Shown one piece after another: positions 5,355-6,794 of a stretch of 64,000 nucleotides of DNA (within the stretch, counting starts at the first letter, position 1; the number at the start of each line of letters is the position of its first letter). The notes under the pieces were generated by a model, which had not been told where the DNA came from, searched no databases, and worked only from the letters and a program-made list of their open reading frames with translations. The stretch lies in sequence record PZ452610.1; one strand, 5' to 3'. The translations under genes and the position numbers were made by a program. This DNA comes from a phage.

Positions 5355-5390
5355 ATCTTTATGAAATATTTTTATGCCCTAGATACCAAA

Positions 5391-5414
5391 AGGCCCCAAC
5401 CATAAGGAAGGGGC
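5391..5414 (-). terminator. rho-independent terminator
   Basis: GGCCCC...GGGGC hairpin; minus strand followed by T-run (plus aaaa 5387..5390). Confidence 0.55.
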
Positions 5415-5420
5415 ATTCTA

Positions 5421-5885
5421 TTATTTAATTTGTTTAGCAGACCAGATACGGTCTTTAATAAGTTTTTGGATATCTTCAACATACTCAAGGCTATGAGCGT
5501 GAGGATTATCTTTGAAGCTATGTGCTCGTGCCAGTTTCTGGCCTTCTGTTTTGATTACTAAAAGCTCTTTAAGAATTGCTTCATACTTAGAAATAATTCC
5601 TTTGGCGATATTTTTTTCTTGAGCTGCTTTAGGGTCTGTTTTTGGCGCAGGTGCTTTACCTGTAGCTTTCTGGAACAATTCACCTGATGCAGCTAGGCTT
5701 TTAAAAACTCGGCTAACAGTATTAGCATTAGTAAAACCTTCGGCTTTAAAATCTCTAATAAAACGGAAACGTTCTTCATCAGAGGCGTCTTTGTAAGAAT
5801 ATTTACCTGCTTGAATTGCTGCAATCGCAGCGGCTTTTACATCTGAACTAGATTGTTCAGTCAAAAATTCAGCGTATGATTTCAT
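5421..5885 (-). CDS. putative capsid-packaged internal protein (CTS-like N-terminus)
   Basis: N-terminus MKSYAEFLTE resembles T4 internal-protein capsid targeting sequence MKTYQEFIAE with LxE cleavage site; basic 154 aa. Confidence 0.55.
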   Translation of the reverse strand: MKSYAEFLTEQSSSDVKAAAIAAIQAGKYSYKDASDEERFRFIRDFKAEGFTNANTVSRVFKSLAASGELFQKATGKAPAPKTDPKAAQEKNIAKGIISKYEAILKELLVIKTEGQKLARAHSFKDNPHAHSLEYVEDIQKLIKDRIWSAKQIK

Positions 5886-5930
5886 GTTGCTTTTCCTAAG
5901 TTAATTAACTTATCTATTTATTATTATGCC

Positions 5931-5957
5931 AAAAAGCCCCGACCTTTCGGAAGGGGC
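5931..5957 (-). terminator. rho-independent terminator
   Basis: GCCCC-gacctttcggaa-GGGGC hairpin; TTTTT on minus strand. Confidence 0.6.
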
Positions 5958-6269
5958 TAAGCCTTGCGGCAACCTTGTCGGGGTTCCACCTGCTAAGGCA
6001 AGTGTTTGTACGAAACGCCGGGATTCGAACCCGGTTATTAAGCAGTTGACGCTACTCAATATTTTTAAAAGGCCATATCTCGACCATATCCGAACGTTCC
6101 GTCAAAAACGCTACTCGGCTTACGGCAAAGATATTTCCTCGAATCGATAATTCTGTGCGCCGTTTCTGCTGTGATGTAAGGGGATATTAACAAATCGTAA
6201 AGATTTATTAAGACCAGTCCTTACTCAGGGAACATCAGTCCGACGACTTGCCGGTAGCGACCCGGCTTC
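5958..6269 (-). ncRNA. non-coding structured region with tRNA-like T-arm hairpin (possible small stable RNA or tRNA remnant)
   Basis: No credible ORF; minus-sense CCGGG-TTCGAAT-CCCGG canonical T-arm at 6016..6032 but no canonical cloverleaf; bounded by terminator. Confidence 0.3.
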
Positions 6270-6614
6270 TTATTTTGACATATCATCAATTTGCTCTCGA
6301 CGCCGACGCCATAGATTAATCGCTTCATTAACACATTCGGCGTTTGGTATATGACGGCAATAATATAATGATTCGCGTTTCTGGAACCGATGTTGCAATG
6401 GAATTTCGTTTAAAAGGTCTTTACGGTCAAAGTATTCAAAACCGGTTAACCCAGAACGGTTTTTAAGAAACTTCCAATGTCCGAATTAATTTTGAAAATA
6501 AACATAATCAGCATGTTGATATAACGAATTAATCAACCGGTCGGAAATAACTGTTTCACGTTCGTTAAAATAAAACGTTAAATCATGAACTACCAGATAA
6601 ACATTGCCTTTCAT
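6270..6614 (-). pseudogene. ORF interrupted by in-frame TAA (41 codons, stop at 6488..6486, then 72 sense codons)
   Basis: Same frame read through by eye: MKGNVYLVVHDLTF...YFQN*FGHWKFLKNRSG...DDMSK; second part has no ATG start. Confidence 0.45.
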
Positions 6615-6632: not shown

Positions 6633-6709
<77 letters not shown>

Positions 6710-6712
6710 GAT

Positions 6713-6789
6713 TGGTGACCCAGACCAGATTCGAACTGGTAACCTTTCCCTTATGAGGGGACTGCTGCTAACCATTGAGCTACAGGGCC
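6713..6789 (-). tRNA. tRNA with CAU anticodon (Met or Ile-type)
   Basis: Canonical T-arm ACCAG-TTCGAAT-CTGGT, anticodon loop CUCAUAA, encoded CCA; acceptor and D stems have mismatches. Confidence 0.5.
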
Positions 6790-6794
6790 TAAAT

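Follow-up and report, generated by a model that had tools for sequence, protein, structure and literature searches.

Two small stable RNAs of phage T4, rnaD and the tRNA-shaped rnaC, have been known since the 1970s, and as species 2 and species 1 RNA they are among the oldest sequenced RNAs still without a known function. In the T4 reference genome (NC_000866; T4s001, T4s002), they lie downstream of the transfer RNA (tRNA) genes and on the same strand, in the order tRNA-Arg, rnaD (species 2 RNA, 119 nucleotides [nt]) and rnaC (species 1 RNA, 139 nt). Non-decoding tRNA-like modules are also known elsewhere: the MALAT1-associated small cytoplasmic RNA (mascRNA) at the MALAT1 3' end and the tRNA-microRNA units of murine gammaherpesvirus 68 (MHV68) recruit tRNA-processing enzymes and define the ends of neighbouring RNAs. 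In addition, the 3' external transcribed spacer of the Escherichia coli glyW-cysT-leuZ transcript is a sponge for small RNAs. Here, we analysed a non-coding unit on the minus strand, at positions 5931-6273 of a 64,000-nt stretch of phage DNA (record PZ452610.1, hereafter the window). Sequence comparison indicated that this unit very probably encodes the Mosigvirus orthologues of T4 rnaD and rnaC, each with a fold backed by covariation, a conclusion that concerns identity and structure, not function.

Identity and conservation of the rnaD-rnaC block

The source phage is a Mosigvirus, an RB69-like T-even phage, and its close relatives ATK47 and SA79RD are filed under this genus. A BLAST search of 50,697 phage records matched the region in 819 of them, nearly all from T-even-like phages of enterobacteria, the best match being Escherichia coli O157 typing phage 3 (100% identical). 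At the equivalent site within the matched stretch, ATK47 carries the annotation 'rnaC, small stable RNA, species 1 RNA'. The first-pass annotation of 5958-6269 had named the T4 species 1 and 2 RNAs among several options, and this option was confirmed by the ATK47 annotation and by alignment with T4 rnaD and rnaC over their whole length. The unit reaches slightly beyond those earlier bounds and is laid out as follows.

6273..6154, minus strand: predicted rnaD (species 2 RNA) orthologue, about 119-120 nt, aligned end to end with T4 rnaD (T4 71053-71171)
6153..6148, minus strand: 6-nt spacer GAAUUA between rnaD and rnaC; T4 has AAAUUA at the same position
6147..6009, minus strand: predicted rnaC (species 1 RNA) orthologue, a tRNA-like stable RNA of 139 nt, from the T4 alignment
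6008..5959, minus strand: conserved 3' trailer of 50 nt, between rnaC and the terminator
5958..5931, minus strand: intrinsic terminator, GCCCC..GAAA..GGGGC followed by U5, found by a terminator scan, annotated in related records and conserved in the alignment

The order rnaD, 6-nt spacer, rnaC, trailer and terminator is that of T4, and the alignment showed the block to be collinear with the T4 unit along its whole length. rnaC is identical to T4 rnaC at 137 of 139 positions (98.6%) from end to end, rnaD matches T4 rnaD at 104/119 positions, with the differences mostly in the apical hairpin P4, and the trailer and terminator together match at 72/78. The whole block shows 92.3% identity with T4 over 351 nt, compared with 69-81% for the flanking coding DNA; because the identity lies far above that of the flanks, the rnaD/rnaC region is under tRNA-like purifying selection. 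The terminator seen at the end of the region was recovered by the terminator scan, with the sequence AGCCCCTTCCGAAAGGTCGGGGCTTTTT. At the other end, the first rnaD bases overlap the TAA stop (6272..6270) of the upstream open reading frame (ORF).

No host homologue was matched in 5,426 E. coli genomes. A pattern was also run through 185,579 species genomes of bacteria and archaea (GTDB); its 21 matches were all chance matches in GC-rich DNA without the rnaD helices P1 or P3.

The trailer is nearly invariant in 11 distinct T4-like versions, variation too scarce for testing a structure, and it occurs only in phages that carry rnaD, rnaC and trailer as one block. It is recorded as a putative conserved 3' external spacer. 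Trailer and terminator together (6008..5931) resemble the glyW-cysT-leuZ spacer in being the 3' external spacer of a tRNA-type operon, ending in a terminator hairpin and a U tail; unlike that spacer, the trailer is known here from conservation alone.

Structure models for rnaC and rnaD

The minimum free energy (MFE) of rnaC is -50.2 kcal/mol (z=-4.55), and covariation was assessed on 23 distinct aligned rnaC sequences, including IMG/VR and metagenome loci. The RNAalifold consensus, the MFE fold and the covariation concur on the rnaC helices, and the model contains the following elements.

6146..6140, minus strand: 5' strand of the acceptor, CGAUUCG, paired with CGUUUCG at 6017..6011 (rnaC positions 2-8 with 131-137)
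6139..6137 and 6072..6070, minus strand: 3-bp D-like stem, AGG/CCU, which bears the long arm
6134..6075, minus strand: long arm, a 60-nt irregular hairpin with double changes at 16 of its 26 pairs
6105..6100, minus strand: loop 1, UUGACG, at the tip of the long arm and complementary to loop 2
6061..6036, minus strand: second arm, a 10-bp stem with a 6-nt loop and double changes at 7 of the 10 stem pairs
6051..6046, minus strand: loop 2, CGUCAA, the second-arm loop, complementary to loop 1
6034..6018, minus strand: T arm, CCGGG-UUCGAAU-CCCGG (positions 114-130), which directly continues the acceptor stem

With this 54-pair model, 93.6% of the cells in the alignment are paired, versus 38-47% when the partners are slid. 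Double changes were found at 29/54 pairs, and none of 500 shuffles reached the observed values. The acceptor stem comprises 7 bp formed from the true 5' and 3' ends and holds two U.U mismatches in T4-like phages. At its pair 4/135, 12 sequences have G-C and 11 have A-U, and pair 3/136 is GC, GU or AU. In Tegunavirus, the stem is fully Watson-Crick (CAGUCCG/CGGACUG), which replaces both U.U mismatches. Moreover, the T stem covaries as CCGGG/CCCGG, CCUGG/CCAGG and CUUGG/CCAAG. Conservation and covariation of the T-arm hairpin in relatives had been proposed as a check of the earlier observation, and the changes in this stem and throughout rnaC give a positive answer. The T arm itself (CCGGGTTCGAATCCCGG) had been reported at 6016..6032; the sequence is present on the minus strand, 2 nt away from that position, and no other match occurs in the 64 kb when up to 3 mismatches are tolerated (average in shuffles, 0.03).

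The remaining segments of rnaC are short. An unpaired GG at 6074..6073 (G74 G75) comes after the long arm, an A-rich 8-nt linker connects to the second arm, and 1 nt separates the second arm from the T arm. According to this model, rnaC has the shape of a tRNA but no decoding anticodon arm, and the second arm takes the place of the anticodon or variable arm. Its likeness to a canonical tRNA (RF00005) consists of the end-formed 7-bp acceptor contiguous with a 5-bp T stem, the UUCGAAU loop, which conforms to UUCRANY, the D-like stem followed by the unpaired GG, the four-way junction and the location in a tRNA array. Unlike a tRNA, rnaC has a 60-nt hairpin at the D-loop position, non-canonical linker lengths and no 5-bp anticodon stem with a 7-nt anticodon loop (U33, purine 37), the sole candidate being the 10-bp arm with its 6-nt loop. 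In Kagamiyamavirus, Kanagawavirus, Karamvirus, Tegunavirus and Gelderlandvirus, the more distant homologues of rnaC have tRNA genes as immediate neighbours on both sides. When the long arm was deleted, ARAGORN gave a tRNA-like call with the true acceptor only at 80% of its threshold and none for the phiR1-RT sequence, which is weak support for the model. In the Enterobacter phage IME523 (Kanagawavirus; locus L005), the T loop of rnaC is UGCAUGC in place of UUCGAAU, and G74 is changed to C. There could be an elbow contact between G74 G75 and the T loop, possibly compensated in IME523.

The complementarity of loops 1 and 2 adds a further layer to the rnaC model. All six pairs between them are kept in 23/23 aligned sequences, and the same loops occur in three further lineages. 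Two double changes preserve the pairing: C-G to U-A in three Tegunavirus sequences (UUGAUG/CAUCAA), and A-U to G-C in the metagenome locus L047, whose relatives are Klebsiella phages (UUGGCG/CGCCAA). Furthermore, the long arm is of unrelated sequence in fGh-Ecl01 (L009), PEi20 (L021), L047, Kosakonia phage 305, Gelderlandvirus and Ursula. The variant insert was measured in the first three, where it is 63-64 nt long and ends in the same apical loop, and the variant arms of the other three likewise fold with this apical loop. The constant arm length and constant loop fit a strut that would deliver loop 1 to loop 2. The carriers of the variant arm (L009, L021, L047 and L070-L073) are phages of Klebsiella, Edwardsiella, Kosakonia, Salmonella/Proteus (Gelderlandvirus) and Citrobacter.

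A duplicated 9-mer within the region had also been pointed out. Both copies of GAGTAGCGT were located, at 6116..6108 and 6057..6049 on the minus strand; the chance expectation of a 9-mer repeat in about 300 nt is, as an estimate, roughly 0.17. Distant homologues do not conserve the second copy, which belongs to a stem that covaries. Therefore, the repeat is not meaningful, and it was rejected as a functional element and regarded as incidental.

For rnaD, the MFE is -38.6 kcal/mol (z=-3.35). Its architecture was compared across 30 distinct sequences and by independent MFE folds of 25 homologues, which gave the following elements.

6266..6250, minus strand: hairpin P1, GCCGG-GUCGCUA-CCGGC, paired in 30/30 distinct sequences
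6245..6241, minus strand: 5' strand of P2, CGUCG, paired with CGGCG at 6162..6158 and present in the MFE folds of the 25 homologues
6234..6231, minus strand: 5' strand of P3, UGUU, paired with AGCA at 6170..6167 in 28-30 of 30 sequences
6230..6227, minus strand: internal loop CCCU; CCCUG is invariant in 17/17 aligned sequences
6226..6173, minus strand: P4, the long apical hairpin, with at least three unrelated versions between lineages, all hairpin-forming

Compensatory changes in P1 were found at pairs 1, 2 and 4 (G-C/A-U/G-U; C-G/U-A), its loop is GUCGCUA or AAGACGUU, and its closing pair is G-C, A-U or G-U. P3 varies as U-A/A-U, G-C/A-U and U.G/A-U, being UGUU/AGCA here, AGUU/AGCU in one T4-like group and UAAU/AUUA in Karamvirus. 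Both strands of P2 are invariant, and covariation neither supports nor refutes this helix. Taken as modelled, rnaD is a separate rod-shaped RNA with nested helices, unrelated to rnaC.

The surroundings of rnaD differ between phages. It directly follows a tRNA in T4 and in Karamvirus. In Karamvirus and Jiaodavirus, it comes after tRNA-Asn and lies about 1.4 kb upstream of rnaC. The Vequintavirinae phages A7_1 (an Escherichia phage; L027, about 1503-1598) and UPEC06 contain a compact rnaD with a short P4, directly after a tRNA, and neither rnaC nor the trailer is found nearby. The presence of rnaD in Vequintavirinae, which are unrelated to the T-even phages, suggests horizontal transfer as an independent module.

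Several further proposals for rnaD were tried and rejected. An obligatory pairing between the rnaD 5' region and the trailer (GGCAAG/CUUGCC, GUCGG/CCGAC) is not consistent with A7_1 and Karamvirus, which have rnaD without the trailer, and the segments concerned belong to P2. Pairing of the P1 loop with the GUAGCG motifs of rnaC was also discarded: the Karamvirus P1 loop differs while the rnaC motif stays, and A7_1 has no rnaC. A hammerhead, hepatitis delta virus (HDV)-like, hatchet, pistol or twister ribozyme found no Rfam match at E<=10, and the rnaD helices are nested without a double pseudoknot; the likeness to a hammerhead core, CUGAUG, is lost in Karamvirus (CACUUUAA). Finally, a fragment of ribonuclease P (RNase P) RNA was rejected on the absence of an Rfam match, the unconserved core and the nested topology.

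Two additional structures were observed near rnaD or its homologues. On the plus strand, the complement of P1 (6250-6266) followed by TTCTTATTTT scores as an intrinsic terminator, and this predicted terminator could keep antisense transcription out of the RNA genes. In Karamvirus, Ursula and Jiaodavirus KP182 (L033, about 486-616, and L034-L036), the rnaD-like RNA is followed at once, ahead of tRNA-Asp, by a further structured RNA of about 145 nt. Its closing helix of about 18 bp contains four compensatory pairs between Karamvirus and KP182, and no Rfam family matched it.

Possible biogenesis, function and alternative explanations

Transcription from tRNA-Met and tRNA-Arg would continue across the interrupted ORF, take in rnaD, rnaC and the trailer, and stop at 5931. 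Just upstream of rnaD, neither a late promoter (TATAAATA) nor a sigma-70 site was found. The host tRNA-processing machinery may then excise both RNAs. McClain, Guerrier-Takada and Altman reportedly found in 1987 that a minihelix of acceptor and T arm suffices as an RNase P substrate. Because this minihelix is the minimal substrate, RNase P would be expected to cleave at the rnaC acceptor, making the rnaC 5' end and freeing the rnaD 3' end. Exonucleases would trim the products as far as the helices, and the usual T54 and pseudouridine-55 enzymes would be expected to act on the T loop.

As to function, we tentatively propose, while considering it doubtful, that the modelled rnaC is a tRNA mimic with a masked anticodon-equivalent loop, which takes no part in decoding and engages a tRNA-binding host or phage factor, and that rnaD is a host-directed RNA that is mobile in its own right. 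A broader reading, in which rnaC is such a self-masked mimic, rnaD a second and independent host-directed RNA, and the trailer a small RNA of the 3'-external-spacer kind, is unlikely to hold in all its parts. Under this combined reading, rnaC would keep the acceptor, T-arm and elbow half recognised by tRNA-handling proteins, and the hairpin derived from the D loop would lock the anticodon-equivalent loop through a 6-bp kissing interaction. rnaC could then escape decoding and cleavage while binding, and perhaps titrating, a host factor directed at tRNAs; candidate factors would include an anticodon nuclease, some other defence that targets tRNAs, or an enzyme of processing or modification. rnaD would have undergone horizontal exchange between Tevenvirinae and Vequintavirinae, and adaptive change on a semi-permissive host through the convergent substitution described below.

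Published observations on T4-like phages bear on these proposals. In T4, RNAC has been detected by Northern blotting, and both RNAC and RNAD have been assigned to the late RNAs (PMC9697503). A convergent single-nucleotide polymorphism (SNP) in rnaD was reported in three lines of a T4-like phage evolved on semi-permissive E. coli (PMC12685909), and by the coordinates of that paper it appears to lie within hairpin P4, provided that rnaD is read from the reverse strand. Together, the transfer of rnaD between phage subfamilies, where it stands alone in an unrelated one, and this convergent SNP hint at a host-directed role.

A number of points weigh against this account of the RNAs, their folds and their roles. 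On laboratory strains, T4 mutants with a deleted tRNA region are viable. The loop-loop pairing is supported by two independent compensatory events only, and covariation is equally compatible with an intramolecular kiss and with dimerisation, that is, pairing between two molecules. The proposed contact of G74 G75 with the T loop involves a single lineage, IME523, and the rnaD/rnaC boundaries used here are transferred from the T4 annotation (NC_000866). No CCA is encoded after the acceptor (DNA ...CGTA CAAAC), and aminoacylation of rnaC is therefore unlikely. Furthermore, no late promoter motif was found near the region, although the T4 RNAs are reported to be late. The function of rnaC and rnaD is stated as unknown in three papers (PMC3014915, PMC9697503, PMC12685909), and our literature search returned no reported function and no processing papers from the 1970s-80s, beyond 'function unknown'.

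The main rival explanation is that rnaC and rnaD serve as processing punctuation only, which we also judge improbable. They would direct cuts by RNase P or ribonuclease E (RNase E) and stabilise the 3' end of the tRNA operon, the stable RNAs being by-products with no function in trans. Consistent with this, the two RNAs are always found inside or appended to tRNA clusters, the terminator comes directly after them, and no function has been found in about 50 years. The mascRNA and the MHV68 units offer comparable cases, since they are end-defining modules, as rnaC would be for the rnaD 3' end; they are eukaryotic or herpesviral and have no sequence relationship to rnaC, which is a large RNA with extra conserved arms. 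However, punctuation needs the acceptor/T-arm minihelix alone, whereas the length of the long arm, the second arm and the complementary loops are conserved in at least eight genera. Moreover, Vequintavirinae keep rnaD alone, with no rnaC to release, and the near-identity of rnaC between T4 and this phage is conservation of the kind seen for a tRNA.

A genuine decoding tRNA, of class II with a long variable arm, is very unlikely. For such a tRNA speak the ARAGORN call of tRNA-Phe(gaa) in Enterobacter phage KKP_3262 (L007 1247-1342), the single Rfam match at E<=10 (tRNA-Sec, 16.6 bits, at 6010-6102), and an internal segment, ACGGAACG, that is complementary to the 3' strand CGUUUCGU. We tried the corresponding cloverleaf around an internal acceptor and rejected it. 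This acceptor shows no compensatory change and scores no better than shuffles (46/500 and 135/500), and its pair 49/135 becomes an A.C mismatch in 11/20 sequences; the same 3' substitution is compensated in the acceptor that joins the two ends of the molecule. The Rfam match falls far short of the 47-bit gathering score, and the absence of an encoded CCA points the same way. At 5958-6273, neither ARAGORN nor Rfam at its gathering score called a tRNA, and ARAGORN was also without a call for the T4-like phages and phiR1-RT. The earlier statement that no canonical cloverleaf could be folded around the T arm thus stands, and the two programs miss rnaC because its fold is not that of a cloverleaf with an internal acceptor. 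In KKP_3262, the 96-nt gene recorded in GenBank as tRNA-Phe(gaa) is a mis-called rnaC, of which it covers the 3' two-thirds.

Equally little probability was given to a decaying tRNA pseudogene or relic without selected function. The canonical T arm without a cloverleaf would suit a relic, as would the proximity to tRNA genes and the loss, in this phage, of most of the tRNAs that T4 has (2 here versus 8). In contrast, the identity with T4 exceeds that of the neighbouring coding DNA by far, 29 rnaC pairs stay paired through double substitutions, and matches occur in hundreds of phage records. A tRNA remnant had been considered at first; strong purifying selection and the many compensatory changes tell against it, and likewise against a hairpin linked to the terminator and nothing more.

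Small protein-coding genes are more improbable still. GenBank coding sequence (CDS) annotations cover the region in related phages, mechanical ORFs lie at 6065-6193(-), 5910-6059(-) and 5926-6150(+), and the variant long arm has one open frame with similar peptides in several lineages. Against coding, the variable sites of rnaC show no 3-base periodicity (21/19/18, p=0.89), in agreement with the first-pass view that no credible ORF is present, GAGGA is found without a start codon at a usable distance, and the curated T4 annotation lists RNAs, not CDSs. The peptide from the variant arm was rejected as a candidate: its differences fall 109/88/96 by codon position, 17 are synonymous versus 150 non-synonymous, and the other frames are no worse.

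In favour of a transfer-messenger RNA (tmRNA)-like or other aminoacylatable mimic entering the ribosome, rnaC combines an acceptor stem with a T arm and lacks an anticodon arm, and in some lineages one frame of an internal segment is open. Such a mimic is as improbable as small protein-coding genes: acceptor pair 3:70 is A-U or G-C and not G.U, no CCA is encoded, T4-type arms contain an early stop codon, no coding signature or tag reading frame was found, the ARAGORN tmRNA search was negative and Rfam gave no tmRNA match. The tRNA-like domains of tmRNA and of the Y RNA-like YrlA are similar to rnaC in that the mimicry is confined to the acceptor, T-arm and elbow half. The ends of YrlA form a Ro-binding stem, whereas those of rnaC form the acceptor stem, and Rfam gave no YrlA match to rnaC.

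Annotation and neighbouring genes

As a kind, rnaC and rnaD are already known. Rfam 15 contains a family for neither, and therefore both go unrecognised by standard pipelines in over 800 genomes of phages. Moreover, no description of these rnaC and rnaD structures was found in the searchable literature. Given the lack of both a family and a description, the covariation-supported models, especially the true acceptor pairing and the rnaC loop-loop helix, may be new. The models offer handles for mutation, namely the true acceptor stem, the length-conserved strut, the complementary loops and the CCCU loop of rnaD. Many T4-like GenBank records place one to three 'hypothetical protein' CDSs across rnaD and rnaC; the block of about 340 nt should read rnaD/rnaC, and neither these CDSs nor a 96-nt 'tRNA-Phe'.

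ARAGORN and Rfam at the gathering threshold returned only two tRNA genes, tRNA-Met(cat) at 6713-6789 and tRNA-Arg(tct) at 6633-6709. The tRNA-Met(cat) gene, compared over 6716-6790 on the minus strand, is 98.7% identical to a T4 gene annotated as tRNA-Ile, and it is probably a CAU-anticodon isoleucine tRNA instead. The tRNA-Arg(tct) of the phage gave no BLAST alignment with T4 tRNA-Arg.

T4 rnaD starts 2 nt after tRNA-Arg, whereas a 114-codon homologue of RB69ORF150c, cut by a nonsense change, intervenes here. This ORF (6270-6614, minus strand) fills the interval between tRNA-Arg and rnaD and is intact in ATK47, where it encodes 114 amino acids. In the window, it is interrupted by one in-frame nonsense change, GAA to TAA at 6488..6486, and the remainder is about 93% identical.

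Behind the block, this phage differs from T4 in an extra ORF followed by a second terminator copy. The ORF (5421-5885, minus strand) encodes 154 amino acids, and the near-identical copy of the rnaC terminator (GCCCCTTCCTTATGGTTGGGGCCTTTT) comes after it, at about 5375-5405 on the minus strand. Tequatrovirus 232Ecol030PP (L028) has the same arrangement of ORF and second terminator, whereas T4 lacks the ORF. The ORF and the second terminator look like a cassette inserted behind the trailer.

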